From positions 33,619-97,618 of the forward strand of contig JBBDPM010000001.1 in assembly GCA_040876345.1 (NCBI GenBank): a stretch of 64,000 nucleotides of DNA, given 5' to 3'. A model generated the notes under the pieces. The model ran no database searches, had not been told where the DNA came from, and worked only from the letters and a program-made list of their open reading frames with translations. The stretch comes from Candidatus Woykebacteria bacterium (GTDB taxonomy: Bacteria > Patescibacteriota > Microgenomatia > Woykebacterales > RBG-16-39-9b). A program made the position numbers and the translations under genes. Positions 28,366 through 51,351 of this stretch are shown piece by piece; the first letter of the stretch is position 1, and each line of letters begins with the position of its first letter.

Positions 28366-28411
28366 GTTTGGATTTTAGCATTTTAGTGTTAAAATATCAC
28401 TCTAGCGATTA

Positions 28412-28771
28412 ATGTTTCCTCACAGACTCGAAAGGGCACCTATGTTATTATTAATTGAAGATAAAATTTCTGATAAAGATCTAAAAAAGGTCGCTGAGGA
28501 TTTCGACGGTTATGTTAAAGTGGTTGTTGATGTTGATAGAGAAATTCTAACCGCTGGTGGCAAACAACATGTTGAAGGTGAGGAATTGCTTTTGCAGGGC
28601 GGTAGTAGACAAGATAATCTTTGGGGAGGTGGTTTAGATTTGGAGACTGGAGAGATAGATTTTGATTCAATGATAAACCTTCGGCCCAACCAAGATAATT
28701 CTAGTCGTGAAGTCTTAAATCAAAAATTAAGAGAAAAAATTACTGAAATTGTACAAAAGTTGTTGGTATGA
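28412..28771 (+). CDS. conserved hypothetical protein (DUF5674-like); start may be 28442 (MLLLIED) after SD AAAGGG
   Basis: 119-aa ORF; acidic, widespread small CPR-type protein pattern. Confidence 0.5.
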   Translation: MFPHRLERAPMLLLIEDKISDKDLKKVAEDFDGYVKVVVDVDREILTAGGKQHVEGEELLLQGGSRQDNLWGGGLDLETGEIDFDSMINLRPNQDNSSREVLNQKLREKITEIVQKLLV

Positions 28772-29052
28772 ATGCTAAGGATCTAACTTTAAACATTGCC
28801 GTGAATTTAGGTAGACTCGGCCGTTGGGTAGATGAAGGAAAAACCTCTCGAGTAGCTATTTTTTTGGAGGAGACAGAGTTTTATCTGACAAATCTAGAAA
28901 AGGTTGAGAAAAATACACGCTTCCAGAGAACTTTCGAAGCATTTAAAATTAGCTTCCTGGCCTTAAAAAACAATCATGTATACGATCAAAATTGGGCTGA
29001 GGAAGCCTTGACCTGGGCGAATATCCTCCAACATAGAGCAAAATTAGCTTAA
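28768..29052 (+). CDS. hypothetical protein
   Basis: 94-aa ORF coupled (ATGA overlap) to upstream gene. Confidence 0.45.
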   Translation: MNAKDLTLNIAVNLGRLGRWVDEGKTSRVAIFLEETEFYLTNLEKVEKNTRFQRTFEAFKISFLALKNNHVYDQNWAEEALTWANILQHRAKLA

Positions 29053-29104
29053 ATCTGGCTGGCCTTGCTGGAACAATATTGGATTTCACGCTAAAAATGC
29101 TAGA

Positions 29105-29533
29105 ATGACAGCAGTGAAGAACGATTGTCCTTTTTGTGAATTTAATGAAGATAGAGTTTTGAAGGAAGGTAAACACTCCTATGTTATTTTTAGCAATCCG
29201 CGTCTAATGCCCGGACACTTACTAGTGATAACTCGAAGGCACATTCAAAGGCTTTCACAGATGAACAATGAAGAGCGAGACGAGGTTTTAAATTTTGTAA
29301 CAGAATTTGAAGAAAGGATCTTAGAAAAGCTATCTAAAGGCTGTGATATTCGCCAAAATTTTAAGCCTTACGTGGAAAATAGCAAGACGCACATCAAGCA
29401 TTTTCATTTCCACCTAAATCCAAGAGTTTTTGAAGATGAGCTATATGAAAAAGCAGATGTCTACAGAAAACCTTTGTATAAAGAATTGACGGGAGAAGAA
29501 AGAGATAAGATCGCCAAGTTATTGATTGGTTAG
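29105..29533 (+). CDS. HIT-family (histidine triad) nucleotide hydrolase; functional start may be GTG 29114
   Basis: HIT motif HFHFHLNP; CPFCEF zinc-ribbon-like N-term; promoter module TGCTAGAAT overlaps annotated ATG. Confidence 0.8.
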   Translation: MTAVKNDCPFCEFNEDRVLKEGKHSYVIFSNPRLMPGHLLVITRRHIQRLSQMNNEERDEVLNFVTEFEERILEKLSKGCDIRQNFKPYVENSKTHIKHFHFHLNPRVFEDELYEKADVYRKPLYKELTGEERDKIAKLLIG

Positions 29534-30043
29534 ATTTATCCTCAGACTTGCCAAATTAACCCCAATTCGAATATCTATGTAATTGCCGTTGACGTTTCCA
29601 TCACCATTTACCCAAATTTGTTCAGAAATCGCTTTGTAAACTCTTCTCGGCATTGTTCCCAAAAATTGGTTTGGGGTGTGGGATTTTTTGTTCACTCTAC
29701 CATCAAGATACTTAAGGGCGTTCCTCACCTCCTTCTCATCTTTTATCTCGTAGGCTTTTGCTTGGATGTAAACTCCTTCGCCAGCACCTTCTTGCACAGT
29801 TGAGTCATAAATTACCAAAAAGACTTGATTGTTTTCTTTGATGTTTTTTGAATGTTGTGCGTTTTGATCCGAAGCCCAAAAGAAATTGAGATTTTTATCA
29901 TGTGCAGAAAATACAGGAGAGTTCCAAGGAATGTTATTATTAGACACTGACGCAATCGTAATATATCGGATACTTTCAATTATTCTTTTGGCTATTTGTT
30001 CAGGGGTTTCTTGCATATTTTTACCAAGTCTCCTCTGAAACAT
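29519..30043 (-). CDS. pyridoxamine 5'-phosphate oxidase-like FMN-binding split-barrel protein (general stress protein 26-like)
   Basis: 174 aa; split-barrel pattern and length. Confidence 0.5.
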   Translation of the reverse strand: MFQRRLGKNMQETPEQIAKRIIESIRYITIASVSNNNIPWNSPVFSAHDKNLNFFWASDQNAQHSKNIKENNQVFLVIYDSTVQEGAGEGVYIQAKAYEIKDEKEVRNALKYLDGRVNKKSHTPNQFLGTMPRRVYKAISEQIWVNGDGNVNGNYIDIRIGVNLASLRINLTNQ

Positions 30044-30392
30044 CTAAAGGGTTTATCTGCATCTCCTCTTCTGTCACACTATTTGCTAATCCATATTCCA
30101 CTGCTTTTGAGAAGTCATCTTTACCCAAAAGAAACTTCTTTTCAGAAAAGACAACAATAAGCTGTGATTTATTTGGGTCCTCATGGTAAAGATGAGTATA
30201 GTAAGGGTAAATAATCTTCTCCTCAAGTAAATCAGCTAAACTAGGCGCCTCATCTTCCGGTACTTCAACCTTTAACATTCTTGACTCTCTATCCGTTCCT
30301 TCGGCAAACGTGGTTTCAGAAAGAACCTTGTACTTATCCAAGACGTTTTTATCTTTTAGAGAATTCTCAATTATAATCCAACGATAATTCAT
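30021..30392 (-). CDS. hypothetical protein
   Basis: 123-aa ORF, acidic. Confidence 0.4.
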   Translation of the reverse strand: MNYRWIIIENSLKDKNVLDKYKVLSETTFAEGTDRESRMLKVEVPEDEAPSLADLLEEKIIYPYYTHLYHEDPNKSQLIVVFSEKKFLLGKDDFSKAVEYGLANSVTEEEMQINPLDVSEETW

Positions 30393-30445
30393 ACTTCGAA
30401 TTTTACATCAAAAATAATAAAAAGACAGCTGTGGAGAAGGAGAGG

Positions 30446-31396
30446 TTAGTTTTGGGTGTTGGAATTGGTTTCGAGGGCTTCCTGCACCCCGGCCATATCA
30501 ATTTTTGACTTATAAAAGAAATAGCCTACTGTCCCGAAAGTAATTATTGGCGAAACCCAAGGTGGAATGTGAAAGCCAAAGCTGTCCAGTATCATAATTG
30601 TTCCTAAGAACAGAATTGAGTACATGGCTCCATTTTTTAGATATCGGTAACGTTTAATTCTTTCAATGTTACTAACAGTTAACTTTCGAAGTACCAAGGC
30701 ACCCAGACCATTTCCAATCAATATTAGGGGTACCAAAAAAGTGAAAGCAAAAGCCCCAATAACACCATCAATCGAAAAAGTGGAATCCAGAACCTCCAGA
30801 TAGGCAATCTTACTTAAATCCGACATGCTCCCGCTCAGCAATTTTTTTTCCTGTTCTTCTGCAAACTGCCGAAAGCCATGAATGATAAAGAAAGTTGTGG
30901 ATCCAACCACCGCCGCAAAAGCGAGCATTGGACTTTCGCGAAGAGCGAACCAAACGATAATTGTCAGAAGAATTGAAACTACGGCGAAAAACCAGGCCCC
31001 TTGAGCTTGGAAGAAATTTTCTCCCCGAAGACCGAAATTTTTTGGCTCAAGAAAAAGCCAATTAAAGAAGAGAAACACAAGAAAAATTCCCCCACCAAGA
31101 AGTAGCAAGGGGGACGATTGCTCAATTGCTTCCACAATGTGGGGGTCATTTGAAAAAGCAGCGGTAATTACTCCAACTGGACCAATGCTTGGGTTTGCAA
31201 GCCAAACGATAAGAAAAGGTAAAAGCCCTCGAACAACAAAAACAGCAAAAAGAAACCCCCAAAGGAGGAACCAACGACGGGCTTTTTGGCTCATTCCTCC
31301 GAGGACTTCAGCGTTGATAATAGCGTTATCAATACTCGTGATTATTTCAAATAGTGATAAGCCAAGAATAGTAAGTATTAGAAAGCCAATTTCCAT
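30446..31396 (-). CDS. integral membrane protein, TerC/DUF475-like
   Basis: 316 aa; multiple TM helices; SIDNAIINAEVL motif. Confidence 0.55.
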   Translation of the reverse strand: MEIGFLILTILGLSLFEIITSIDNAIINAEVLGGMSQKARRWFLLWGFLFAVFVVRGLLPFLIVWLANPSIGPVGVITAAFSNDPHIVEAIEQSSPLLLLGGGIFLVFLFFNWLFLEPKNFGLRGENFFQAQGAWFFAVVSILLTIIVWFALRESPMLAFAAVVGSTTFFIIHGFRQFAEEQEKKLLSGSMSDLSKIAYLEVLDSTFSIDGVIGAFAFTFLVPLILIGNGLGALVLRKLTVSNIERIKRYRYLKNGAMYSILFLGTIMILDSFGFHIPPWVSPIITFGTVGYFFYKSKIDMAGVQEALETNSNTQN

Positions 31397-31451
31397 AAAT
31401 ACGAATTATATCATATACATAATTAACTGCGGATATGGGATATAATTAAAA

Positions 31452-31616
31452 AATGAAGTTAAAACATCTTTGGTTAATTCTGGCAGCTTACGGTGTATGG
31501 TTTGCTATTTTATCAGGTTTAGTAGAAGCCTCAAACGGTAAATACTGGAAGCTTGTTTTGAGTCTCGTTCTAGGTTTATTAACGTATTGGGTAATTGAGA
31601 AAAAGATGGGTAAGTA
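31452..31616 (+). CDS. small hypothetical membrane protein (54 aa, below ORF-track cutoff)
   Basis: hand translation MKLKHLWLILAAYGVWFAILSGLVEASNGKYWKLVLSLVLGLLTYWVIEKKMGK. Confidence 0.3.
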
Positions 31617-31672
31617 ACAAACGATTTGGCGGGCCTTGTTAGACCATCTCGACTCGATCCGAGGCGGACGAT

Positions 31673-31933
31673 TTAGCTCTTATAGATATCTCTTCTATGC
31701 CCGACTCTTAAGATCTCTTGTATATTATTTTCTAAATAAAAAATTACACGATAGTTACCCACTCGCAGCCTTCGAGCTCCTTTTACTTCAAAATCTTGTA
31801 ATTGGAGAGAGTTTGCTAAGGGGTCTGTTAAAAGTTTAGTTTCAATTGCTTCTTTTATCTTTTTCTTAACAAGATTGTCTAGTTTGGAAATTTCTTTCGC
31901 CGCGTTTTTAGAATACTTGAGTTGGTAACCCAT
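31673..31933 (-). CDS. type II toxin, RelE/ParE family
   Basis: 86 aa; RVGNYRVIFY...ILRVGHRRDIY signature. Confidence 0.8.
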   Translation of the reverse strand: MGYQLKYSKNAAKEISKLDNLVKKKIKEAIETKLLTDPLANSLQLQDFEVKGARRLRVGNYRVIFYLENNIQEILRVGHRRDIYKS

Positions 31934-31936
31934 CGA

Positions 31937-32188: not shown

Positions 32189-32199
32189 AACAAAATTAC

Positions 32200-32218
32200 T
32201 GTACATTAACAATGTACA
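32200..32218. promoter_or_regulatory. palindromic operator TGTACATT-aac-AATGTACA upstream of antitoxin
   Basis: perfect 8-bp inverted repeat 12 bp upstream of antitoxin start. Confidence 0.5.
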
Positions 32219-32256
32219 TAAGTCAAGTGGTTTGGTCGACCTTTTGGAAGCCCGTA

Positions 32257-32295: not shown

Positions 32296-32302
32296 TGGGC
32301 TC

Positions 32303-33665: not shown

Positions 33666-33697
33666 GATAGTCCGCCAACTGGCGGAGAAAGGAAACT

Positions 33698-36819: not shown

Positions 36820-36821
36820 AA

Positions 36822-37199: not shown

Positions 37200-37308
37200 G
37201 GTTTGAAAGGAGAACTAAATGAGAAAAATTGTTATGTTTAATCCGGTGTCAGGTGACGAGCCTAAAACTTTGGCCAATCCTTTTGGACGATTTGAGGAAC
37301 CCCAAGTG

Positions 37309-37533
37309 CTATAGTTGCAGAAGTTTTAAAACCTCATACACTAAAACTGCTGGCCAAAAGATAGCCTTTACAATTCCCAGTATTACAGCCCAAAAAGAAT
37401 CAGCTCTCTGTAAGAAATAAACGAGAGCTCCGATAATACCCAAACCATAAATAGCCCCCGAACCGCCGTTGTTCACTACCTTCTCGACATGTTGATATTT
37501 GAATAAACTATCTCCGTTTGCCAAAGCAACCAC
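37309..37533 (-). CDS. small hypothetical membrane protein (GTG or internal TTG start)
   Basis: 74-aa ORF, 2 TM; SD AAAGGAGG upstream. Confidence 0.4.
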   Translation of the reverse strand: MVALANGDSLFKYQHVEKVVNNGGSGAIYGLGIIGALVYFLQRADSFWAVILGIVKAIFWPAVLVYEVLKLLQL

Positions 37534-37552
37534 CTCCTTTACTTCAAATAAT

Positions 37553-37571
37553 ACACCAAAAATGCTAGAAT
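37553..37571 (+). promoter_or_regulatory. copy of conserved promoter module ACACCAAAAATGCTAGAAT, oriented toward tRNA-Pro
   Basis: identical to module upstream of cassette genes; ~85 nt upstream of tRNA. Confidence 0.45.
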
Positions 37572-37655
37572 ATCACTATAAAGACGATCGAAGCTGCGGG
37601 GAGTAGTATAAGCAGAGCTTGAATTTTGCTTAGCAAAAAGTAGTGGTAATAATAG

Positions 37656-37730
37656 CGGGGTGTAGTTCATTGGTAGAACGCGGGGCTGGGGGTCCTGATG
37701 CAGGAGGTTCGATTCCTCTCACCCCGACCA
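37656..37730 (+). tRNA. tRNA-Pro (anticodon GGG), CCA encoded
   Basis: hand fold: 7-bp acceptor CGGGGTG/CACCCCG, D-arm GTTC/GAAC, anticodon loop CTGGGGG, T-arm GGAGG-TTCGATT-CCTCT, discriminator A, CCA. Confidence 0.85.
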
Positions 37731-37800
37731 AGGCTATTGATTTCGGAACGTCTTCAAACCCTCAGGAGAATCGAACCTCAAAACGAACTTGACAAAAGTT
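37727..37800 (+). repeat. repeat copy 1 (3' module only, fused to tRNA-Pro 3' end)
   Basis: CCGACCAAGGCTATTGATTTCGGAAC...GAGAATCGAACCTC aligns with 3' half of other copies. Confidence 0.6.
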
Positions 37801-37826: not shown

Positions 37827-38150
37827 GTGAGACGCCTACTTATCTACACCGTCTTTTTAGTAATTGCAGTCGTTATTACAGTTGCCACAACAGTTCTTCA
37901 ATCAAGACCATATCCTACACAACAAATACCAGACGCAGATTTTCTATATGTCTCTGGTTACCCATTACATTACTTAATTACTGGCTTTGCTGGGTTTGAA
38001 GAAAAACTTCAGTTCCCCAACCCAAATTTTGCTTGGAAAACTGAAATACTTTGGGGTCATTTGGCTATAGACATTCTTTTCTGGTTCCTAATAATAGTTA
38101 TGCTAGCCAAAGCTTGGGACTTGGTGAAACAGAGCGAAAAGAAATCCTAA
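37827..38150 (+). CDS. hypothetical membrane protein (GTG start)
   Basis: 107 aa, 3 TM. Confidence 0.45.
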   Translation: MRRLLIYTVFLVIAVVITVATTVLQSRPYPTQQIPDADFLYVSGYPLHYLITGFAGFEEKLQFPNPNFAWKTEILWGHLAIDILFWFLIIVMLAKAWDLVKQSEKKS

Positions 38151-38164
38151 CCTGCAAAGTTTAA

Positions 38165-38305
38165 AAATCTCCCTAAATTTGTAATACTAAAATCAAATGA
38201 GTTCATCTGAATCCAGAGGTTCCTGATATCGTCCAACAAGGCCGACCAATATTTTTGAACCTAACACACCCTTTGACCCTAAAATTCAATCGAACTTAAC
38301 CCGGC
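38165..38305 (+). repeat. repeat copy 2
   Basis: ...GAGTTCATCTGAATCCAGAGGTTCCTGATATCGTCCAACAAGGCCGACCAAT + 3' module. Confidence 0.7.
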
Positions 38306-39221
38306 CAAACTTTCAGGTTTTCAGCGTAATCTTTCATTGCTTTTTCAATTGTGAATTCTGGAAAATAATTAAGCTCTGCCTCAGCCTTTGATATATCAAG
38401 TGGGGTGGTTCGTACGGACTGAACTCTTTCTTCACCTAAATCTATGTCAGTTAACTTAACCTCTATGTTAAAGAGGTTCTTCGCACTACGAGCAATGTCT
38501 TCATAAGAAGTTAGTGTCCCAGCACCAACGTTAAAATTTTTTTTTTAATACTTGAACTAGTCACCGCATTTATTATTGCCACTGCTAAGTCTTTCACGTA
38601 AAGTTGCTCACTTTTTTCTGCAAACGGTACTGCCATTTCAAACTCTTTTCCTTCTATTCCAGCTTTTACAATATCGCGGATAATCTCGTTAAAAGTGGAA
38701 GCAGAACCAAGCCAAGGGCCGTAAACTGAAGTTAAACGTAAAATAACTGCTTTGTCGTAAGGTGTTATAAGTTTTTCTGCTTTTAGTTTTGTCTGTGCAT
38801 ATAAAGTTTTTGGTTCTAAGTGAGTTTCTTCCGTAATTGAGGTAGCTGACTCCAAAGCAGTGCCATAAATTGAGTCTGAACTTGTGTAAACTAAAGGAAT
38901 ATTCGCTTGAGAAGATACTTCGACGACTAATTTCGTCCCTTCGACATTAACCAAACTACCTCGAACAGGGTCTGCTTTTACTGCTCTTTGTCTCAGTGCT
39001 GCCGTATGAACAATAACATCAGGAACAAAATCTTTAACTGCTTTTTCAAAATCTTTTTTGTCGGTTATATCTCCAACAATAACTTTATAACTATTCCAAA
39101 CACTTTTAATAGACTTTTCATCAGGATTTACTTCAAAAAGAATTGGAGAAAATCCTTGTTTTTCCGCTTCTAACGCTGAATAAGTTCCGGCTAAACCGCC
39201 ACCGGTAATTAGTACCTTCAT
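38296..39221 (-). pseudogene. NAD-dependent epimerase/dehydratase (UDP-glucose 4-epimerase-like) interrupted by a 1-nt frameshift in a T10/A10 homopolymer (38537-38546)
   Basis: ORF 38511..39221 (MKVLITGGG...) stops at ...IKKKILTLVLGH*; the C-terminal third (NFNVGAGTLTSYEDIA...KAEAELNYFP...) continues in the +1 frame to 38296; 11 As would restore the frame. Confidence 0.6.
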
Positions 39222-39258
39222 AGCTGTCATTCTAACAGCTTTGTTGTAATATAAAAAA

Positions 39259-40284
39259 GTGAACAAAGCATTTATCTATGGAGCAAGAACCTTAGAAAAA
39301 TATACTGATAGAATATTGGTAAAAGGTTTAAAGAATAATTCTTGGGAAATTTCAGAAGAAGCAGAAAATATCGTTTATCAAATCCACGGAGCACCTCAGT
39401 CAGAGGAAGACGACAAGTTAATTCTTGATAATATTAAGCGAAATATTGTTAAAAACGATTCAACCAAGAGAATTATTCTTGTCCACCGTCCCGATGAAAT
39501 ACAACTTCGATTTCCAGAATTAAAAGATATTTTACAAACAGCTCAGAAACCAATCGGACTCACTTTTTTGGGAGATATGCATGTTAATGACAGTTTCTTT
39601 GGTGCTGAAAACCTAATAAAAAGAGTTATTCCCCACGGGTTTTTCGCAATTTCAGAAAAATTACAAATAGAACCATTAGTCGTCGGCAGTCACACTACTT
39701 GGGGAGAAATGCGATCTATCGAGCACATTTTTAAACTTCTAGTCGAAGTGTTCAGGAAAAATAGTTCTATCATCGGTTATGTTGGTGGTAAACCAAAAGA
39801 CCAATTAGAAGAAGGTTACCTAAAAACTGAATGGGCAAAATTAAACCCCAATGTTCAAGCAACATTCTTTGATGCCCATAAAGATAACTTCGACCTATCG
39901 AAGAAAAATGTAATTTTTGTTGATTCAGACAATGTTGAGCCCGAAAACTTTGGTTTATCGTTTAATGTCCAGATGTATTACTTGAATGACTCAGTAAGAA
40001 CTGGGGAAAGTTCAGGTTCTGTTCATTCTAGTGTTGGTGTACCAGTTATTCTGGAAATGAATGGTTCTGAAATTATCGAAGATGTGAAAGTAATAAAAGT
40101 CCCTTACAGTTCAAAAGAAGATATACACTCGATTGATTTTAAAGCTGGAGCAGACTTGATACTTAAATCGATTGAAGATAGTAGTTATCAGGAAATGCTA
40201 AAACACAATTTAGAGCAATCCAAGAAATTTAATTCTACTTTTGTTGGTAGTGAGTACGTTAAATTGTTTCAAGAGTTGGGTTAA
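39259..40284 (+). CDS. hypothetical protein (GTG start)
   Basis: 341-aa ORF. Confidence 0.45.
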   Translation: MNKAFIYGARTLEKYTDRILVKGLKNNSWEISEEAENIVYQIHGAPQSEEDDKLILDNIKRNIVKNDSTKRIILVHRPDEIQLRFPELKDILQTAQKPIGLTFLGDMHVNDSFFGAENLIKRVIPHGFFAISEKLQIEPLVVGSHTTWGEMRSIEHIFKLLVEVFRKNSSIIGYVGGKPKDQLEEGYLKTEWAKLNPNVQATFFDAHKDNFDLSKKNVIFVDSDNVEPENFGLSFNVQMYYLNDSVRTGESSGSVHSSVGVPVILEMNGSEIIEDVKVIKVPYSSKEDIHSIDFKAGADLILKSIEDSSYQEMLKHNLEQSKKFNSTFVGSEYVKLFQELG

Positions 40285-40286
40285 AA

Positions 40287-40437
40287 AACCTAGTTAAGTT
40301 TGTTGAGCTAAAGTTGAAGGAGTTTATCTGAGGCCAGAGGTTCCTGATATCGCCTGCCACGCATAGTTTCAACGAAGTGTGGTCCAACAAGGCCGACCAA
40401 TGTTTTTTGAACCTAAAATTTTATCGGGCCTCTGAGG
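40287..40437 (+). repeat. repeat copy 3, with 30-bp insertion (40353-40382) inside 5' module
   Basis: TGAGGCCAGAGGTTCCTGATATCG[ins]TCCAACAAGGCCGACCAAT...GGGCCTCTGAGGC. Confidence 0.7.
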
Positions 40438-40443
40438 CAAAAG

Positions 40444-40923
40444 TTATGCGTCTTTGAGATTTTCTAAAACTTTTTTAACATCTCCGGTAATCATTACCCA
40501 ATTTTCTATTTCTTCAAACCCAAGCTTTTGGTACCATTTTAATGGGTGTTCGTGTACCCGATGAGTATAAGTATCCCAAGTCACTACTCCATATTTTTCT
40601 TGAGCTTCGGTAAAGAGCTGTTTTATTAACTTCTTTCCCAAGCCTAAATGTTGATAACTCGGATGAATAAATAACTCCCCTTCAATTAAGTGATTGCCAT
40701 CCCACCAAGGGCGAACGCTTGCAACGATTGCTCCTACTGCTTTTCCGTCTACTTCCAAAACAAAAAATAAATCAGACTGGTCTTCAAACATATATTTCAT
40801 TAACTCTAAAGCACTAGAAACATCCCAAGTCTCACCAATATCAATAGAGTTATAAGCTTCTATATAAACTTGGGCTAAAGTTTTTAGGTCTTCTTCTTTT
40901 GCTAGTCTAAAATTAGTATTCAT
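40444..40923 (-). CDS. GNAT-family N-acetyltransferase
   Basis: acetyl-CoA-binding motif region QHLGLGKKLI; start MNTNF at second ATG of promoter module. Confidence 0.75.
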   Translation of the reverse strand: MNTNFRLAKEEDLKTLAQVYIEAYNSIDIGETWDVSSALELMKYMFEDQSDLFFVLEVDGKAVGAIVASVRPWWDGNHLIEGELFIHPSYQHLGLGKKLIKQLFTEAQEKYGVVTWDTYTHRVHEHPLKWYQKLGFEEIENWVMITGDVKKVLENLKDA

Positions 40924-41006
40924 AGCTGCCATTCTAGCACTTTTTTGAGAGCTAGATCAAAAAAAGTGCTGCGCAAGCTAAGCATTTTTGGTGTAAGATA
41001 CAACCA

Positions 41007-41297
41007 ATGATAATTCATATTGCTTTATTTAAATTTAAGCCGGAAGTTTCAAAAGAAGAAGCTGATGATGCGCTAAATGAAGTTAGAGATTTAAAGATTA
41101 AGATTCCACAAATAATTGAAATCTATACCGGAGAAAATTTCTCCAAACACTCAAAAGGTTTCACCCATGCCATAGTCGTAAAATTCAACTCGGGGGAAGA
41201 TATAGATGCTTACAGGGCTCATCCAGCACATAAACCAATCGCTGATAAATTAGATTCGATGGAAGAGGACTCTATCGGAATAGATTTTGAAGTATGA
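41007..41297 (+). CDS. Dabb (stress-responsive dimeric alpha+beta barrel) protein
   Basis: 96 aa; IIHIALFKFKPE...AHPAH. Confidence 0.65.
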   Translation: MIIHIALFKFKPEVSKEEADDALNEVRDLKIKIPQIIEIYTGENFSKHSKGFTHAIVVKFNSGEDIDAYRAHPAHKPIADKLDSMEEDSIGIDFEV

Positions 41298-42697: not shown

Positions 42698-42775
42698 AAT
42701 TAGATTTTATAGTTTTTGGATACAAGCCTACTGATTTGATAAAAGCACGTAAAAATAAGGGCTAAGCCGCTTGGA

Positions 42776-42927
42776 AGAACCTGCTTAAGTTCGTAAGACT
42801 AAAGTCAAAAGAGTTAATTTGAGGCCAGAGGTTCCTTAAATCGTCCAATAAGGCCGACCAATGAAGTTCGTGCCTGAGTTACTATATCTTAACGTATCAG
42901 GGCTGGTGTGTTATCGAACCTCTGAGG
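42776..42927 (+). repeat. repeat copy 4
   Basis: TTGAGGCCAGAGGTTCCTTAAATCGTCCAATAAGGCCGACCAAT...CGAACCTCTGAGGC. Confidence 0.7.
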
Positions 42928-43410
42928 CTAAGTTTTACTGGACGATTGTTTTAGTAGCTTAGGCCAATTTTCAATAACTTCTTCAAGTTTGTCATACTCG
43001 TAGTAAACTACTTCACCACTTTCAATTAGCCCGCGAACAATTTTTCCAATTCTCCTATCAAACTTCTTCCCCTTTATAATTATTATTGGTGTATAAGGTA
43101 AACCCATCCTAGGTTTGTCAATGGCACGTTGAATTACCATTGACCGACCTTCGCTTGGTGCGGATATTTCAGCAAGTAGAAGGTCAGATTCATCAATCCA
43201 TTTTATGTGAACTTCTCTTTGTTCCCTAAACGTAGGCTTTCTGTTCAATCCCAATTCCTTCTGTAGAAATAAATCTGGGTCGGTTGCAAATACGTATTCG
43301 GCTCGGTAAAGTTTGTGACCTTCGTCTTGTAGGAAAGTCATTAGCTTCCTTAGGTTTACATCAGATTCGCCACCACTAACCTCTGGGTCAACACTGAAAT
43401 ATATCTTCAT
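42928..43410 (-). CDS. nucleoside 2-deoxyribosyltransferase-like fold protein (paralog of 41294..41833)
   Basis: start MKIYFSVDPE at second ATG of promoter module; SDLLLAEISAPSEGRSMVIQRAI pattern. Confidence 0.5.
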   Translation of the reverse strand: MKIYFSVDPEVSGGESDVNLRKLMTFLQDEGHKLYRAEYVFATDPDLFLQKELGLNRKPTFREQREVHIKWIDESDLLLAEISAPSEGRSMVIQRAIDKPRMGLPYTPIIIIKGKKFDRRIGKIVRGLIESGEVVYYEYDKLEEVIENWPKLLKQSSSKT

Positions 43411-43523
43411 AGATGCCATTCTAGCATTTTTGGTGTAAAATTCGAACTGATAAAAATATAGTAAAATAAATAAAGGGTCTGTAGTTCCACAGACACCTGA
43501 ACCTATATTAGTTACACAAAAAG

Positions 43524-44666
43524 ATGGAAAAGTTGAGAAATAAACTCGGAAATAAAGTAATTTTTGGAATTGTAGCAATCATAATTTTGCTTGCCCTTTC
43601 GTTTGTTTTCGGCCGTATTTTTACTAAAGAAGCAATAAATCCTTCTCATACAACTAATACAAAAACGGAAAATTGCACTAATCCTGTGTTCACCGAGTAT
43701 TTCGTTGATCCAAAATTCGTGCAAAAGGTTGGGCAAGTTGGAGTGGTTCATGGTTCTGGACTCTATATTGTAGAGCGTTCGTATGTAAGCGTAAAAAATG
43801 AATTTACCGGACAGAAAGTGCCGGTGTATGCCCCAGTTAATATGACGGTTCTCTCCGGCAGCCATTATATCAATCCCGCAGCTTCCAGCACTGCCTTGCC
43901 AGATTGGGCTCTTTGGTTTGACGCTGGCTGCAATGTGGAAGTAAATCTTGCCCATCTTAAGGAAGTTGTAGATCCAATTGCGGTGCAGCTGCCTGAAGCA
44001 AAAAAAGATAGCAGAAGCACCCAACTAAAACCTCAGCAATTCAAAGCGGGGGATCTTATCGGATACTTCATTTATAACCAGGGAGATGTTGCCGGTTTTG
44101 ATTTCATCGTCAGAGATAAAAAGGTGGTTAATCAATTTATCAATCAGGAGAGATATTCTGGCAATAGAGCGTCAAACTTGATTAACGGTGTCTGCCCTTA
44201 TGATTATTACGAATCTAGAAAAAAAGAAACCTACTACAATTTGCTCGGAGGAGGCGGGGGAACCCTGTTTAAGGTCAAAGACTGCGGCAAGTCTTCGAGG
44301 GATGTGGCGGGAACTATTTCAGGGATGTGGTTTTTGGACAAAGAACCGCAGGAAAATATATATGACAGTTATAAAGATGGGCATTACGGTAGTACCTTAT
44401 CTATTGTTGGAGACGAAGAAAGAGTCACCATAGGCAATTTGGGCACGAGCAATGTCTCCTGGACCCTCAGCAAAAATCCAACCTACAAACTCCCGGAAGA
44501 AGTCGCAAACCAACACTGCTACCAGTTAGACGTATTCACACCTGGGGAAACTAGTGGGTGGGTGTATTTAAAGCTCATTTCTGAAGTTGAACTTGATGTG
44601 GTGTTTTCGCAAACAGGAACTTGCCCGTCTGCATTTCCTGGAAACGCAAAGAGATATTATAAGTAG
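43524..44666 (+). CDS. hypothetical secreted/membrane-anchored protein
   Basis: 380 aa; N-terminal signal anchor; GGGGG tract. Confidence 0.45.
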   Translation: MEKLRNKLGNKVIFGIVAIIILLALSFVFGRIFTKEAINPSHTTNTKTENCTNPVFTEYFVDPKFVQKVGQVGVVHGSGLYIVERSYVSVKNEFTGQKVPVYAPVNMTVLSGSHYINPAASSTALPDWALWFDAGCNVEVNLAHLKEVVDPIAVQLPEAKKDSRSTQLKPQQFKAGDLIGYFIYNQGDVAGFDFIVRDKKVVNQFINQERYSGNRASNLINGVCPYDYYESRKKETYYNLLGGGGGTLFKVKDCGKSSRDVAGTISGMWFLDKEPQENIYDSYKDGHYGSTLSIVGDEERVTIGNLGTSNVSWTLSKNPTYKLPEEVANQHCYQLDVFTPGETSGWVYLKLISEVELDVVFSQTGTCPSAFPGNAKRYYK

Positions 44667-44723
44667 GCAACTAAAATCCGGTTTTTAGCCAGCCTTCTAA
44701 AGAGCGATACTAAACTGTAAGAA

Positions 44724-44908
44724 ATCTGTTTAGATTATTTGGAGAGAAGTCAAAACTGTTAAGTCGAGGCCAGGAGTACCTTATATCGTCCAACAAGGCC
44801 GACCAGAAAACTCGTGCCTAGATTTAATCCCTAGAAAATGAAGTTTCGCAAAGCTCGAAGAGATTTATATCAAATAGATCAGGATGAGGAGAATCGGACC
44901 TTGAATCT
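44724..44908 (+). repeat. repeat copy 5 (longer 3' module variant)
   Basis: GAGGCCAGGAGTACCTTATATCGTCCAACAAGGCCGACCAG...GAGAATCGGACCTTGAATC. Confidence 0.65.
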
Positions 44909-44918
44909 AATAGGGAAG

Positions 44919-46117: not shown

Positions 46118-46165
46118 TCTAAGCTATTTTAACACATAAAATTACAATCCCGACTTGAAACGGTT

Positions 46166-46306
46166 TAAATTCTCAGGACTAAAATTAAAGGAGTTGATTT
46201 GACGCCAGAGGTTCCTGAAATCGTCCAACAAGGCCGACCAATTAATTTCGTGCCTAAGTTACTATATCTTACTGTATCAGGGTTGAGGAGAATCGGACTT
46301 CTGAAG
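46166..46306 (+). repeat. repeat copy 6
   Basis: GACGCCAGAGGTTCCTGAAATCGTCCAACAAGGCCGACCAAT...GAGAATCGGACTTCTGAAGC. Confidence 0.7.
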
Positions 46307-46684
46307 CTAATTCTTTACTGCTACCATACTAATTTCAACGTTGGCACCGAGAGGTAATTCTTTTACACAAACTGTTTCACGAGCTGGAAAAGGGTCGGAC
46401 AAGTAACTTCCATATACTTCATTAATTTTTCCATAAACTGACATATCAGTAACATAAATTGTGGATTTAACTACATTGGCAAACGATACATCCGCTGCTT
46501 CAAGTATAGCTTTTAAGTTTTTCATTATCTGATGTGTTTGTTCTTCGATAGTTCCTTCCAGAAGTTTCCCTTCTGTAGTTAAGTAAATTTGACCAGAAGT
46601 ATATACAAAGTTATTAGCAACGATTGCCTGTGAAAAAGGCCCTGTGGCTTTTGGAGCTTTATCTGTTTCAACTTTTGTTTTCAT
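46307..46684 (-). CDS. RidA/YjgF-family reactive-intermediate deaminase
   Basis: start MKTKVE (leaderless, variant module TGGTAGAAT-N7-ATG); conserved RidA core. Confidence 0.8.
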   Translation of the reverse strand: MKTKVETDKAPKATGPFSQAIVANNFVYTSGQIYLTTEGKLLEGTIEEQTHQIMKNLKAILEAADVSFANVVKSTIYVTDMSVYGKINEVYGSYLSDPFPARETVCVKELPLGANVEISMVAVKN

Positions 46685-46745
46685 TACTGACATTCTACCA
46701 TTTTTAGGGCTTTTTATAAATTTAGTCTTTCTGTATAATGTCGTC

Positions 46746-48122
46746 ATGCCTAAATTAGTTTCAACAAATCCCGCTAAAAACTATGAGCTTGTTGGAGAAG
46801 TAAGTGTTTCGACTGCTTCTGAAATAGCAGAGAATGTAAAAAAGGCTCAAGCTACAAAAGAAGCTTGGAAAGAACTGGGCGTTAAAAAACGAGTCGAGTT
46901 GATGAAACCAATAGTCGAGGAGTTTGAAGGACGCCAAGGGGAGGTTGCTCAGATAATAACCAAGGAGGTAGGAAAGCCAATACGGCAGAGTCGTGATGAA
47001 GTTAGAGGTTACATAGGAGATTTTAAGTGGTTTATAGAAAACGTTGAATCTTCTCTCGCTGAGCAAGTAACTTTTGAAGACGAAAAATCATTACATAAGA
47101 TGGTTCATGAACCAAGTGGCGTTGCTGCCGTAATCACACCATGGAATTTTCCCTTTGGCATGGCCGTTTGGGGAATCGTCCCAAATTTATTAGTTGGTAA
47201 TACTGTTGTTTTCAAGACTTCTGAGGAGTGCCCTTTACTTGGAAAGGTAGTTGAAGAAATTTTTCTAAACCATGATTTGCCTGATGGGGTTTTTGCTGAG
47301 GTGTATGGTAACGGGAACGTTGGCGAACAATTGGCCAAGAGTGATATCAATCTAATTTGGTTCACTGGTAGCTCAAAAACAGGTGGATTCTTGTACAAAA
47401 TCGCTGCCGATAAGTTTGTAAAAGTGATTTTGGAAATGGGCGGTTCCAACCCTGGTATTGTTTTTGAGGATGTAGATATAGAAAAGGCAGCAAATATTAT
47501 GGCTGATGCGAGGCTTCTTAATTGTGGTCAAGACTGCTCTGCTGTTAAAAGACTCCTTGTTGAAGAATCAATTTACAAGGAATTCATTCCTCATCTCAAA
47601 AAGACATTTAAGTCAAAAGTTATTGGTAGCCCAGATGATGAAAAAACTGATGTAGGTAGTCTGGTGGCCAAGAGGCAGTTGGAATTATTAGAGGGTCAAG
47701 TTAACGACTCTTTAGATAAAGGAGCGAAAATAGTTTATCAGGCTAAACTTCCAAAAAATCTAAAGGGTGCCTTTTATCCCCTCACAATTTTAAACAACAT
47801 CGATAAGGACATGAGAGTTTGGAGAGAAGAAGTTTTTGGACCAGTTCTTTCTGTGGTTCCATTCAAAACCGAGGAAGAAGCTGTGGAATTTGCTAATGAT
47901 ACTATCTATGGCTTGGGTAGCAGAATAATTTCTAATGATAAAGAAAAAATAGACAGAGTTGCATCGAAAATTGAAGCAGGAACAGTTGAGGTTAATAAAG
48001 GCGACCGATGGCTTCTCTGCAATCCTTATGGCGGTTATAAAAATTCGGGAATGGGTATTGAACATGGAACCAGAGGTTTTCAAGAGCTTTGCAGGGTGAA
48101 AATTATTGCTTACTCGAAATAG
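46746..48122 (+). CDS. NAD(P)-dependent aldehyde dehydrogenase
   Basis: start MPKLVSTNP 6 nt after TGTATAAT; motifs LEMGGSNP, catalytic LLNCGQDCSAV. Confidence 0.85.
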   Translation: MPKLVSTNPAKNYELVGEVSVSTASEIAENVKKAQATKEAWKELGVKKRVELMKPIVEEFEGRQGEVAQIITKEVGKPIRQSRDEVRGYIGDFKWFIENVESSLAEQVTFEDEKSLHKMVHEPSGVAAVITPWNFPFGMAVWGIVPNLLVGNTVVFKTSEECPLLGKVVEEIFLNHDLPDGVFAEVYGNGNVGEQLAKSDINLIWFTGSSKTGGFLYKIAADKFVKVILEMGGSNPGIVFEDVDIEKAANIMADARLLNCGQDCSAVKRLLVEESIYKEFIPHLKKTFKSKVIGSPDDEKTDVGSLVAKRQLELLEGQVNDSLDKGAKIVYQAKLPKNLKGAFYPLTILNNIDKDMRVWREEVFGPVLSVVPFKTEEEAVEFANDTIYGLGSRIISNDKEKIDRVASKIEAGTVEVNKGDRWLLCNPYGGYKNSGMGIEHGTRGFQELCRVKIIAYSK

Positions 48123-48142
48123 GAGTAGTTTAAGATTCAAAT

Positions 48143-49075: not shown

Positions 49076-49107
49076 TTAAGATTGCTATATCAGGCTATAA
49101 TTAGTCT

Positions 49108-49650
49108 ATGACCTTTCTTAAAGTAATACGGCTTGGACATCCTAAATTGAGATCTAAATCAAAACAAGTAAGTAAAAAGGAACTGTCTTCAAAAACTTTT
49201 CAGAAGTTTTTGGACGATTTAGCCGAAACTTGTTTGAAATATAACGGGGCTGGAATAGCAGCCCCGCAGGTTGGGGTAAATAAAAGAGTAATTGTAGTTC
49301 ATGTAGATCCAAAGAACCCCCGTTATCCAAATAAGAAACCGTTTCCCCTTTCCATAGTCATTAACCCAAAAATAGTTAAACGCTCATCTAAAATAACTGA
49401 TGATTGGGAAGGAGATCTGTCCGCTGGTATTATAGGTCTTGTGCCAAGACCGAATGCCTGCACTGTGGTAGGACTTGATAGAAAAGGTAAAGAGGTAACT
49501 TTCAAACTCACTTATGGTTTCCATGCGAAAGTTTTTCAACACGAGATCGATCATTTAAACGGTGTTTTCTTTATTGATAGGGTTAAAAAGAACAACACAA
49601 TCAGTGAGTTGGCAGAATGGGAGAAATATTGGAAGGACAAGAAGATTTAG
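49108..49650 (+). CDS. def: peptide deformylase homolog with Cys-to-Asp substitution in motif II (EGDLS)
   Basis: 180 aa; motif I GAGIAAPQVGV, motif III HEIDHLNG, motif II reads WEGDLSAG. Confidence 0.75.
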   Translation: MTFLKVIRLGHPKLRSKSKQVSKKELSSKTFQKFLDDLAETCLKYNGAGIAAPQVGVNKRVIVVHVDPKNPRYPNKKPFPLSIVINPKIVKRSSKITDDWEGDLSAGIIGLVPRPNACTVVGLDRKGKEVTFKLTYGFHAKVFQHEIDHLNGVFFIDRVKKNNTISELAEWEKYWKDKKI

Positions 49651-49838
49651 TTAGGATAATAATAAACTGCGGTTCCTTTTCTTTCTTTTCTCACTAAACC
49701 TCTTTTAATGAGAGTATCTCGGAAACTGGCAGTATGAGGTTTACCCAATACACGATTTAATTCAGAAGGTCTGATTCCTGGATTATTTTTAATGATTAAA
49801 AGCATTTCCTCCAAAAACTTTTCCCTAAAGCTTTTCAT
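49647..49838 (-). CDS. small winged-helix DNA-binding protein
   Basis: start MKSFREKF at second ATG of promoter module; helix-turn-helix pattern. Confidence 0.45.
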   Translation of the reverse strand: MKSFREKFLEEMLLIIKNNPGIRPSELNRVLGKPHTASFRDTLIKRGLVRKERKGTAVYYYPN

Positions 49839-49877
49839 AGCTGCCATTCTAGCATTTTTGGTGTAAGATACAAACAT

Positions 49878-50417
49878 ATGAAACGTGGTCCGTTTAAAAT
49901 AAAAAGTTCTAAGCTCATTTATAAAAACGATTGGATAGAAGTACGAGAAGATGAAATCATTCGACCTAACGGGAAAGAAGGTGTTTTTGGCATTGTGGAA
50001 GGGGCTTCTGGCTCATCGATTGTCGCTTTGACCAAGGATAATGAAGTTTACCTCACCGAAGAATATCGCTACGCTCAAGATAAAATTACATACGAACTGC
50101 CAAGCGGTGCGATAGATAAGGGGGAGACACCTCTTGATTCGGCAAAAAGAGAACTGAAGGAGGAAACTGGTCTGACTGCAAATAAATGGGCTGATTTGGG
50201 TTATATAAATCCACTTACCGTTATCCTTAAGTCTCTGAACTATATGTTTCTTGCAGAGCAACTAAGGGAAGGTGAGGCTGAAGATGAGGAAAGCGACTTA
50301 ATCGAACTTAAAAAGGTTTCTTTAATTAAGTGTTTAGAAATGATTGAGAAGGGCCAGATAACTCATGCAGCTAGCGTGGTCGCTATACTAAAAGTTGCAA
50401 AATTAAAGGAATTATAA
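49878..50417 (+). CDS. NUDIX hydrolase (ADP-ribose pyrophosphatase-like)
   Basis: Nudix box GAIDKGETPLDSAKRELKEETGL. Confidence 0.8.
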   Translation: MKRGPFKIKSSKLIYKNDWIEVREDEIIRPNGKEGVFGIVEGASGSSIVALTKDNEVYLTEEYRYAQDKITYELPSGAIDKGETPLDSAKRELKEETGLTANKWADLGYINPLTVILKSLNYMFLAEQLREGEAEDEESDLIELKKVSLIKCLEMIEKGQITHAASVVAILKVAKLKEL

Positions 50418-50440
50418 AGTCATACAATTTAGAAATCTAC

Positions 50441-50530
50441 CGAGGTTAGCTAAACTAAAGTCGAACGAATTTAGTGTAGGCCAGAGGTTCCGAATATCGT
50501 CCAACAAGGCCAACCATTGCGTCTAACACG
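50441..50530 (+). repeat. repeat copy 7 (degenerate 3' part)
   Basis: GTGTAGGCCAGAGGTTCCGAATATCGTCCAACAAGGCCAACCATTG. Confidence 0.6.
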
Positions 50531-50604
50531 ACCATTGACAAATAAAGTTTACAAGTTTACAATGTAAGAAGTTTGAAAATTAAACACAATGTTAGGAGTA
50601 TACA

Positions 50605-50886
50605 ATGGAAAATAAAAATCAAGAAAAATGGGTAAAAATACTTGGTAAAGGAATGCTGACTCTTCCTAAAGAATGGAGGGATGAGGCAGGTATTGATACC
50701 GGTGATGTCGTCAAGGCAAAAAAGGAAAGAAATAAGATCGTTATCGAATTAAAAGATCAAACCAAGAAAGTTCCCTATCGTACTTACACCGACTCTGAAC
50801 TAGATGAATTTTTAAAAGAAGATAAGCTTCCTAAAAGCCTTTCCGAAAGAATCGATAGGTTTTTGTCCACCGCCAAAAATAAATGA
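50605..50886 (+). CDS. AbrB/MazE/SpoVT-family antitoxin
   Basis: 93 aa; swapped-hairpin motif GKGMLTLPKEWRDEAGIDTGDVV. Confidence 0.7.
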   Translation: MENKNQEKWVKILGKGMLTLPKEWRDEAGIDTGDVVKAKKERNKIVIELKDQTKKVPYRTYTDSELDEFLKEDKLPKSLSERIDRFLSTAKNK

Positions 50887-51314
50887 GGGTATTTTTTGAT
50901 GCCTCAGTAATCATCGCCGCTTTCCTCTCCCCGGCCGGTGGCTCAGCAAAAACTCTTAAACTTATTAAATCGGGACTGATAAGGGGTGTTACTTCTCAGA
51001 CTGTTATAGAAGAAGCATTGGAAGAAAAGCACCTGCTCAAAATAAAAAGTTCCAAGCAGGATTTAGAAGGGTTTATTGCTAGCAGTGGTTTAATTGTACG
51101 AAGCCAAATCACTCCAGACGAAATTACTCCTTATCAAAACTTAATCGACCCAGATGATGCACATCTTATCGCAGGAGCAAATTTGACAAAGTGTACCCAT
51201 CTCGTAACTCTAGATAAGAAGCATTTACTCCGAGCAGATATAAAAGAAAAATTCTCACCACTTCGCATCGTTTCACCAAAAGAGCTCTTAGAAGATGGGG
51301 TTAGAAGTAACTAA
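50883..51314 (+). CDS. PIN-domain toxin (VapC-like)
   Basis: 143 aa; VFFDASVIIAAF with conserved acidic residues; ATGA-coupled to antitoxin. Confidence 0.7.
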   Translation: MRVFFDASVIIAAFLSPAGGSAKTLKLIKSGLIRGVTSQTVIEEALEEKHLLKIKSSKQDLEGFIASSGLIVRSQITPDEITPYQNLIDPDDAHLIAGANLTKCTHLVTLDKKHLLRADIKEKFSPLRIVSPKELLEDGVRSN

Positions 51315-51351
51315 CGACACTTCTAGCATTTTTTGAGTAGGATACAAAGTT

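Follow-up and report, generated by a model that had tools for sequence, protein, structure and literature searches.

The module and its setting

The window analysed here is a stretch of 64,000 nt from contig JBBDPM010000001.1 (GenBank assembly GCA_040876345.1). Its first 27 kb hold rpoC, secY, the ribosomal protein region from S12 to L17 and related genes. The segment from 27.5 to 54.7 kb has a G+C content of 0.36–0.39 versus 0.40–0.45 and carries small accessory genes, including those for HIT, GNAT, NUDIX, RidA and CopC proteins and epimerases, as well as toxin–antitoxin pairs and an ArsR cluster. A module of approximately 40 bp that recurs in this accessory segment is the subject of this report. 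A sequence-only reading of the segment had described it as a promoter with a leaderless start that was reused by unrelated genes.

When matches to two patterns were counted in the window with up to three mismatches allowed, five were found for TGCTAGAATGGCAGCTATGAA, for which 100 shuffles gave an expectation of 0.00. They are at 40919–40939 and 49834–49854 (both on the minus strand and exact), 43406–43426 (−, one mismatch), 39217–39237 (−, two mismatches) and 29098–29118 (+, three mismatches). ACACCAAAAATGCTAGAAT was also found five times (0.07 expected), with exact matches at 37553–37571 (+), 43418–43436 (−) and 49846–49864 (−) and looser ones at 29088–29106 and 51320–51338. The positions and recurrence given in the sequence-only reading were confirmed when the individual sites were read. 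Its statement that the modules are nearly identical at all of the genes applies only to 43406–43447 and 49834–49877, which are 86% identical over 50 nt and are the only pair nearly identical over the full ~40 nt; the other copies are half-modules or diverged (62–82%).

The archetype (49834–49880), which was the best nhmmer match (E=1.3e-14), fills the 39-nt intergenic region (49839–49877) between a winged helix-turn-helix (wHTH) gene (49647–49838, −) and a NUDIX gene (49878–50417, +). It reads CAT-AGCTGCC-ATTCTA-GCATTTTTGGTG-TAAGAT-ACAAACAT-ATG. The predicted left promoter, on the minus strand, has a TAGAAT hexamer (49846–49851) preceded by TGc (49852–49854) and followed by the gap GGCAGCT (49839–49845) and the ATG of the wHTH gene (49836–49838); its candidate -35 box is either TTGTAT (49868–49873, 16-nt spacer) or TTTGTA (49869–49874, 17-nt spacer). 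The predicted right promoter, on the plus strand, comprises CTGCCA (49841–49846), a 17-nt spacer, TG (49862–49863), TAAGAT (49864–49869), an 8-nt gap and the ATG of the NUDIX gene (49878–49880). The predicted layout is TTGTAT-N16-TGc-TAGAAT-N7-ATG on the left and, on the opposite strand, CTGCCA-N17-TG-TAAGAT/TAAAAT-N6-8-ATG on the right, with 12 bp separating the two -10 boxes.

Two predicted overlapping divergent promoters

A scan of metagenomes for the exact bidirectional core returned 56 contigs, and the flanks were profiled in 53 distinct metagenome contexts using only the positions left free by the search pattern. In the left flank, T was found at -4 in 52 of the 53, G at -3 in 47 and C at -5 in 39; together with the first base of the core, these spell cTGCCA, located 17 nt upstream of TAAGAT. 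The right flank reads nCAAA, with A at position 4 in 51 of the 53, and corresponds on the other strand to TTG, 16 nt upstream of TAGAAT. A left flank resembling gctgcc was retained in 39 contexts that lack a start codon 7 nt to the left, and its conservation is therefore independent of the leaderless start. GGCAGC, which follows the left -10 box and precedes the start codon, is best read as the putative -35 box of the opposite promoter, which would explain why the stretch from the -10 box to the start is conserved.

We consider it probable, at about 0.7, that the module is one of a family of homologous bidirectional promoters of ~40 bp, each made up of two fully overlapping divergent promoters of the sigma-70 type that would give leaderless transcripts, and that this family has spread by copying. 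As the predicted start points of transcription are 38–40 bp apart, the two modes of polymerase binding would be mutually exclusive, with only one polymerase accommodated at a time. The reverse complement of the module does lie directly upstream of the plus-strand genes starting at 41007, 49878 and 51352, as had been noted from the sequence, and the suggested bidirectionality is supported by the presence on the opposite strand of a further -10 box, with a start codon (ATG) 6–8 nt beyond it in 18 of the 53 contexts.

Position of the start codons

In the window, TAGAAT is separated by 7 nt from the second of two potential start codons at 29114, 39221, 40923, 43410, 46684 and 49838, and the gap is 6–8 nt on the opposite strand. 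The first ATG is formed by the AAT of the -10 box and the next G, so that with a 7-nt gap the two ATGs are automatically in frame. Both the overlap of the first ATG with the extended -10 box and the 7-nt spacing had been recognised in the sequence-only reading and were upheld, except that the second start codon is GTG, rather than ATG, in the HIT copy. Among the metagenome contexts, the left start codon is at exactly 7 nt in 13 of the 53.

The intergenic region of the archetype is wholly taken up by the two predicted promoters, leaving room for neither a leader nor a Shine–Dalgarno site, and the gene calls of the source assembly begin the GNAT, NDT-like, RidA and wHTH genes at the second ATG. 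An ortholog of the HIT gene (74% identity) at a related locus, L023, has no module, and its start, MKNSCSFC, aligns with VKNDCPFC from the GTG at 29114 in the window. The PNPOx genes at two other loci (L019 and L066) read TAGAATATCAGCCGTG, in which the first ATG is absent and the -10 box is followed 7 nt later by a GTG. With the module-adjacent starts, the Pfam domains of the proteins begin at residues 1–5. From the ATG onward, orthologous flanks differ mostly at third codon positions. Genes within operons of this genome bear GGAGG-type sites. Translation from the second start codon of a leaderless mRNA, as originally proposed, is supported by these features of the sequence, and N-terminal extensions of the type ...TKNARMAAMK would, as that reading held, be spurious. 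Transcription would start on each side at, or no more than 2 nt from, the A of the ATG or the GTG, giving leaderless mRNAs. Where a start codon does not abut the module, the product would be a tRNA precursor or an mRNA with a short leader.

Other copies in the window

The second full module (43406–43447; nhmmer E=4e-13) was also listed, at 43413–43441, in a scan for consensus promoters. On its left side, TAGAAT (reverse complement of 43418–43423) is followed by the gap GGCATCT and the ATG (43408–43410) of the NDT-like gene (42928–43410, −). Its right side is ATGCCA-N17-TAAAAT (hexamer at 43436–43441) and the next plus-strand gene is 82 nt further on, starting at 43524. The copy noted upstream of the GNAT gene is present and, as a correction to the sequence-only reading, is one of two modules in tandem (40919–41006), found as two separate nhmmer matches (40922–40944 and 40981–41003) in the interval 40919–41009 and both decayed on the unused side. 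In the first, TGCTAGAAT (40931–40939, −) is followed by GGCAGCT and the ATG (40921–40923) of the GNAT gene (40444–40923); in the second, AGCATTTTTGGTGTAAGAT, with the -10 box at 40994–40999 (+), is followed by 7 nt and the ATG of a Dabb gene at 41007. A diverged module (39217–39261; E=0.024) lies between an epimerase gene (38511–39221, −) and a gene encoding a 341-aa protein (39259–40284, +). It has TGTTAGAAT (39229–39237), GACAGCT and ATG (39219–39221) on the left, and TAATAT (39247–39252), 6 nt and GTG (39259) on the right.

The copy at 37534–37576 (E=3.5e-6; TTCAAA-17-TAGAAT with TG in the promoter scan) has a left-type promoter, ACACCAAAAATGCTAGAAT at 37553–37571 (+), pointing at a gene for tRNA-Pro with the anticodon GGG (37656–37730, +; found by ARAGORN, 58.2 bits with Rfam) that begins 84 nt downstream. 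No ATG follows the promoter, the sequence being TAGAATATCACTATAAAG, and this absence had been correctly described. On the opposite strand, TATTAT (37548–37553) is followed by 14 nt that include AAGGAG and then by the GTG (37533) of a 74-aa gene (37309–37533, −), which thus has a leader. The half-module of the HIT gene (29079–29116, +; E=2.5e-5) consists of TG (29098–29099), TAGAAT (29101–29106), the gap GACAGCA and GTG (29114–29116), with an in-frame ATG at 29105 inside the -10 box; the gene product has a HIT Pfam match.

The remaining copies are variants. The region upstream of the second epimerase gene (28366–28411) is diverged and bidirectional, reading CAT-GTTTGG-ATTTTA-GCATTTTAGTG-TTAAAAT. 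The variant TGCTAAAATCCAAACATG reported for this gene is present, and it resembles the right half of the module, that is, the half on the opposite strand: TGCTAAAAT (28372–28380, −) is followed by 6 nt and the ATG at 28365 of the epimerase gene (27529–28365), and the orthologous epimerase gene at L052 carries TGGTAAAATCCAAACAATG. On the other side, TGTTAAAAT (28387–28395, +) is 16 nt ahead of the ATG of a DUF5674 gene at 28412. At 30391–30437 (−) is a decayed module with a right-type half, ATTTTTGATGTAAAATTCGAAGT, and the ATG (30392) of a gene at 30021–30392, the left half having decayed to CACAGCTGTCTTTTTA; it was detected as an inverted repeat, 79% identical to 43404–43446, and by nhmmer at E=0.084. 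The RidA and aldehyde dehydrogenase genes flank a further variant (46682–46748; 46720–46692 with TG in the promoter scan). RidA has the variant TGGTAGAATGTCAGTAATG with its -10 box at 46692–46697, in which TGGTAGAAT (46692–46700, −) precedes GTCAGTA and the ATG at 46684, and the aldehyde dehydrogenase gene has a separate predicted promoter, TGTATAAT (46732–46739, +), 6 nt before the ATG at 46746. Finally, the half-module directly after the stop codon of a PIN gene (51314) is at 51315–51354 (+). Its left -10 box has decayed to CTTCTA (51320–51325), and the promoter predicted for a DUF218 gene, TTTTTTGAG-TAGGAT (hexamer at 51338–51343, +), is 8 nt from the ATG at 51352.

Occurrence at core genes and tRNA genes

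Leaderless geometry is common across the genome: a -10-like hexamer was found 5–9 nt upstream of 26 of 101 open reading frame (ORF) starts, versus 7% of all ATGs, and rpsL is among these (TATAAT, 8 nt, ATG). The specific module was not found before any of the core genes examined. The search covered ~79 kb, namely the window and ~15 kb of additional flanking sequence with rpoB/C and the genes past recA. Matches to the module profile with E<1 were confined to 29.1–51.3 kb, and there were none in the core portions of the window or in the additional flank. None of the core promoters examined, including those of rpsL, fusA, tuf, infA and recA, carries it, and the possibility that the motif is simply the consensus in front of most core genes was not borne out within these ~79 kb. 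Canonical promoters were seen elsewhere in the window, namely TTGATT-17-TATAAT before rpsL and TTGACA-17-TACAAT at 50535–50563.

A restriction to accessory genes held as far as these core promoters are concerned but not completely. The left promoter of the module points at tRNA-Pro(GGG) in the window and at L025 and L059, and at tRNA-Lys at L057 and L067; from its position, the module probably drives tRNA-Pro and, with the same caution, tRNA-Lys, and would not be confined to accessory protein genes.

Distribution and re-assortment

The module-bearing contigs include, judging from their names, assemblies of Hainich groundwater, and relatives were present in 0.1-µm filter fractions of groundwater. 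Several contigs have two or three copies, some of them diverged, with TATAAT or TACAAT in place of TAGAAT. Neither the module core nor the core of the repeats described below was found in viral contigs, and carriage by phages was rejected. When genomes representing species were scanned with the left half, TGCTAGAATGnCAGCTATGAA, 5 of the 13 matches listed were coding sequence of atpG and ~3 were chance-like. The bidirectional form was seen, among the matches listed, only at L005 and L012, both from one metagenome-assembled genome (MAG), SMAG_U7546 (DATBWR01), as the variant CACTTTGGTGGTAAAAT.

The atpG matches (L002, L003, L006, L008 and L010) arise in unrelated bacteria from ARM(S/T)AM in the gamma subunit of ATP synthase (ARMSAMK or ARMTAMN), and are a trap for any pattern-based count of the module. 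SMAG_U7546 is labelled 'Candidatus Nanoarchaeia archaeon'. Its locus L012 shares sequence with L055, which has bacterial recA and recX beside tRNA-Pro and encodes proteins 86–89% identical to those of the window, and the label is probably wrong.

In the 56 contigs, the module is flanked by genes from ~46 unrelated protein families, as well as by tRNA-Pro and tRNA-Lys. The families include B3_4, SET, NAD(P)HX dehydratase, NUDIX, MBL, uridine kinase, HAD, HD, epimerases, PCC, histidine phosphatase, NDT and PNPOx. The claim that it is reused on unrelated cargo was borne out, with the left and right partners re-assorted. Pairs joined at the module include HAD and NUDIX (L058), HAD and HD (L029), PNPOx and NUDIX (L066), PNPOx and another gene (L019), and tRNA-Lys and NUDIX (L057). 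An ortholog of gene g41294, which is second in its operon in the window, lies directly on the module at L027, and the HIT gene has a module in the window and none at L023.

Variable positions within the module are linked. TAAGAT was found with ACAA in 23 of 24 cases and TAAAAT with a first base other than A in 28 of 29 (Fisher p=9e-13). Such linkage defines haplotypes, as descent predicts, and indicates copying rather than convergence. The copies also have non-consensus choices in common, and decayed unused halves are present at 51315–51351, 30391–30437 and in the tandem pair at 40919–41006. The conclusion that the module was copied and did not arise by convergence, and is to that extent 'transplantable', is supported by these sequence comparisons. 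It would be inherited by copying and travel with accessory genes in a hypervariable region of repeat-bounded cassettes linked to tRNA-Pro(GGG). Recombination at or inside the module would re-assort the gene pairs, and a half that is no longer used would decay. The simplest mechanism would be homologous recombination or gene conversion between identical copies of 24–40 bp, and recA is encoded at 57022–58050.

A cassette array next to tRNA-Pro

Nine direct repeats of ~190 nt were found on the plus strand, at 38133–38319, 40256–40449, 42746–42939, 44696–44872, 46140–46319, 50402–50595, 52557–52736, 53098–53275 and 54507–54693 (core GGCCAGAGGTTCCTnAnATCGTCCAACAAGGCCGACCA; nhmmer E 1e-47 to 3e-19), with a partial inverted copy at 37246–37303. 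They divide the region from 38.1 to 54.7 kb, downstream of tRNA-Pro(GGG), which forms the left anchor, into eight cassettes of 0.4–4.1 kb. This repeat family, which the sequence-only reading did not connect with the module, gives the cassettes physical boundaries. The module is present in five of the eight, typically between minus-strand genes on its left and plus-strand genes on its right, and the other three have promoter-like sequences of their own a short distance upstream of a start codon. GAGGTTC and CCGACCA are shared by the repeats and the 3′ part of tRNA-Pro, and the 60 nt after tRNA-Pro are 77% identical to the sequence after one of the repeats.

Of the 56 metagenome loci with a module, 11 also have this repeat family, as does L012. 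tRNA-Pro(GGG) is near modules or repeats at six related loci, and all three occur together at L016, L043, L055, L059 and L069. The content and order of the cassettes vary between genomes. Among the ORFs searched from 27.5 to 55.4 kb, a set that excludes a few small ones at 32.6–35.7 kb, none had a recombinase domain. At L069, a large serine recombinase of 495 aa (Resolvase, Recombinase and Zn_ribbon_recom domains; 9018–10505, +) ends at the 3′ end of tRNA-Pro(GGG) (10494–10568, −), and two exact modules and two repeats are found further along the contig. From its position, this protein is a candidate integrase for the array.

Two other possibilities for the repeats were considered and rejected. 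As attC-like hairpins or a structured RNA they gave only 6 pairs and -3.4 kcal/mol with RNAalifold, without covariation, and z-scores of -1.4 to +0.7 for single-stranded DNA folding, and a permissive Rfam scan for degenerate tRNAs yielded only the real tRNA. A terminator scan found no classic intrinsic terminators in them. The T-arm of tRNA-Pro (GAGGTTCGATTC, 37704–37715) has a perfect 12-bp inverted copy at 37768–37779, ~50 nt downstream of the gene, and weaker T-arm-like inverted pairs flank some of the repeats, for example CCAGAGGTTC and GAACCTCTG at 42.8 kb.

An insertion of 2.95 kb (27494–30445) distinguishes the window from L016, where the homologs of g27299 and of the TerC/DUF475 gene g30446 lie side by side. 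The insertion carries six accessory genes (including the epimerase, DUF5674, HIT and PNPOx-like genes) and three promoters of the module type, and has no flanking repeats. The three toxin–antitoxin pairs of the accessory region are ParE (31673–31933), MazE/PIN (50605–51314) and RHH/PIN (53309–53969). The arrangement of MazE/PIN followed by a module is conserved at L054, and RHH/PIN forms the tRNA-proximal cassette at L016 and the last cassette in the window.

In the core region, the genes for L18, S5 and L15 are contiguous (19167–20458), with S5 and L15 overlapping and no L30 gene between them. This gene order and the recovery of relatives in 0.1-µm groundwater fractions suggest an affiliation with the Candidate Phyla Radiation (CPR)/Patescibacteria. 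It is possible, though we regard it as doubtful, that the module and the ~190-nt repeats both belong to a gene-cassette system, so far undescribed, of this probable CPR/Patescibacteria clade. Arrays of small self-expressing cassettes would be anchored at tRNA-Pro(GGG), and the cassettes would be mobilised in trans by a recombinase whose gene is located elsewhere. Each cassette would bring a standard bidirectional leaderless promoter, which would also serve as the point of exchange for half-cassettes. If so, the system would be a natural plug-and-play means of expression and shuffling in organisms with minimal regulatory capacity.

Alternative explanations

Several points weigh against an interpretation of the module as a copied pair of promoters. 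Both promoters and their leaderless starts are predictions from sequence, and the matches to a -35 box are weak (four of six positions for CTGCCA and three of six for TTGTAT). In the right-hand promoters, TG abuts the -10 hexamer (TGTATAAT at 46732–46739, TGTAAGAT at 49862–49869 and TGTAAAAT at 43434–43441) and is not the canonical TGn, unlike in the left-hand promoters, which have the spacing of the TGnTATAAT type. The scan for consensus promoters is not discriminating, with 49 sites barely above the 41.4 expected and a few of the module promoters among them; the accompanying count of terminator-like sites was 14 (14.1 expected). For the metagenome scan, a rough estimate, which is our own and not computed, is that ~3 of the 56 contigs would be expected by chance, and as these copies were found with the exact core pattern, the invariance of the core is partly due to ascertainment and only the flanks are unbiased. 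The comparison with core genes spans only ~79 kb of one genome, and it is possible that a regulator binds the same bases.

That the module is no more than the generic promoter consensus of the lineage, on which strong selection for strong promoters has converged without copying, seems unlikely. The frequency of extended -10 boxes and leaderless geometry across the genome, rpsL included, would be expected under this explanation. Motifs with T-tracts and G are found upstream of the -10 box at rpsL too, and single look-alike starts (TGYTAGAATGNCAKCTATG) are present in MAGs of Saccharibacteria (two) and Terracidiphilus (one). However, the core promoters lack the module, all matches being at 29–51 kb, and the shared non-consensus choices (TAGAAT, TAAGAT and CTGCCA) and the variant linkage are unexpected under convergence, as is the persistence of decayed halves where they are not needed. 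Among the matches listed, only one other species representative of 185,579 has the bidirectional form. The look-alikes (TGYTAGAATGnCATCTATGAA followed by an ORF) are at L001 (2990), L007 (955, −) and L013 (7241, −), none with a bidirectional half; the one in the Terracidiphilus MAG precedes a serine recombinase gene. We also consider it improbable that the conserved bases are an operator through which a transcription factor, such as the 63-aa MarR-like wHTH protein encoded at the archetype, co-regulates the accessory genes as a regulon. Conservation does extend past the two -10 hexamers, a small wHTH gene (with weak MarR matches, E=0.002) does lie on the archetype, and repressors classically act on divergent promoters that overlap, Tn10 tetA/tetR being the familiar case. 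The conserved positions nevertheless fall on the -35, TG and -10 elements of two promoters with spacings of 16–17 nt, neither dyad nor direct-repeat symmetry of the helix-turn-helix type was found in the module by eye or in a repeat search, and the wHTH gene is not beside the modules at other loci. Such regulation might in any case coexist with promoters spread by copying rather than replace them.

The exact re-assortment of left and right genes at the module, the tandem duplication at 40919–41006, the location of modules within an array of repeats that resemble recombination sites and the large serine recombinase abutting tRNA-Pro at L069 would also fit a site for site-specific recombination, or a tiny mobile element that bears outward-facing promoters and becomes inserted before genes. 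We think this quite improbable. Coding sequence begins directly on either side of the module, terminal inverted repeats and target duplications were not seen, and the boundaries of the cassettes are marked by a different family, the 190-nt repeats. The absence of recombinase domains from the ORFs tested at 27.5–55.4 kb also counts against it, and ordinary homologous recombination between copies identical over 24–40 bp, in an organism that encodes RecA, would give the same pattern. Hardly any weight can be given to the idea that the ATG inside TAGAATG is the true start, with a promoter further upstream and proteins beginning MAAMK. This ATG is in frame in all of the copies in the window and the ORF is open upstream, but the frame follows automatically from the AAT, the G and the 7-nt gap. 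A Shine–Dalgarno site is lacking, a 39-nt intergenic region is too short for an upstream promoter, the copies at L019 and L066 have no first ATG, the HIT ortholog has no N-terminal extension and the gene calls of the assembly take the second ATG.

Implications

If the module does consist of two overlapping leaderless promoters, 39 bp would suffice to express two divergent genes without leaders or ribosome-binding sites, which would place it among the most compact complete expression units known from bacteria. It occurs in a lineage without genetics and, in the literature found, without promoter data of this kind. The comparisons are evidence that promoters spread together with genes acquired horizontally and are re-assorted among them, which bears on how such genes are immediately expressed in symbionts with small genomes. 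Accessory islands in these genomes can be located by searching for the module, which also serves to warn annotators of spurious N-terminal extensions. It looks like a natural standard part for the expression of newly acquired genes, and is a candidate short bidirectional part for synthetic biology.

Comparison with known systems

No paper describing the module or the array was found in the literature on leaderless genes and promoters in CPR or on integrons in CPR. Actinobacteria and Deinococcus have leaderless genes in which a -10 box, in many cases extended, directly precedes the start, and lambda cI transcribed from PRM is a further example. The module resembles these in having a -10 box 6–8 nt before an ATG or GTG, a predicted lack of any 5′ untranslated region and no Shine–Dalgarno site, but differs in that a near-invariant promoter and start are reused on dozens of unrelated genes and stand back-to-back with a second promoter. 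At its predicted start the module has TAT, in agreement with the Y-R-Y 'start element' reported from promoters of bacteria (PMC12641261).

The bidirectional promoters of Warman et al. have shared or overlapping symmetrical -10 boxes, with starts 7–25 bp apart and a mode of 18 bp (bioRxiv 10.1101/2020.01.31.928960; PMC12825309). As in these, a single short stretch of DNA is predicted to support divergent transcription from two mutually exclusive orientations of polymerase. The -10 boxes of the module are separate, 12 bp apart, its predicted starts are 38–40 bp apart, and its putative -35 boxes lie in the stretch between the -10 box and the start of the partner. This layout is closer to that of overlapping divergent pairs such as Tn10 tetA/tetR.

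Putative mobile promoters, as described by Matus-Garcia et al. in 2012, are 50–100 nt of upstream DNA with at least 80% identity in front of non-homologous genes within and between genomes (PMC3488235). The module is likewise found upstream of non-homologous genes within and between genomes. Its identity is high over only ~24–44 nt, with 86% over 50 nt for one pair, and unlike the putative mobile promoters it is ~40 nt long, predicted to be bidirectional and leaderless, tied to a cassette array and a point at which gene pairs re-assort. In contrast to miniature inverted-repeat transposable elements, start codons abut both of its ends, and neither inverted nor direct repeats were seen in its flanks.

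The array differs from integrons in that no IntI was found beside it, among the ORFs searched from 27.5 to 55.4 kb, and its repeats are not attC-like hairpins. Integron cassettes are mostly promoterless and rely on the common promoter Pc, whereas five of the eight cassettes here have the module and the other three have their own promoter-like sequences. The tycheposons of Prochlorococcus are tRNA-linked islands built by serial integration (bioRxiv 10.1101/2020.12.28.424599). Like such islands, the array is hypervariable and lies beside a tRNA gene, with small units of cargo between direct repeats and, at L069, a recombinase at the tRNA gene. The repeats have CCGACCA in common with the 3′ end of the tRNA. 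The array differs from such islands in that no integrase was found in the window and in that the repeats are a ~190-nt family of their own and not recognisable partial tRNAs. The array is at most a candidate member of either class, and it resembles tRNA-linked islands of serial integration, such as the tycheposons, more closely than it resembles integrons.

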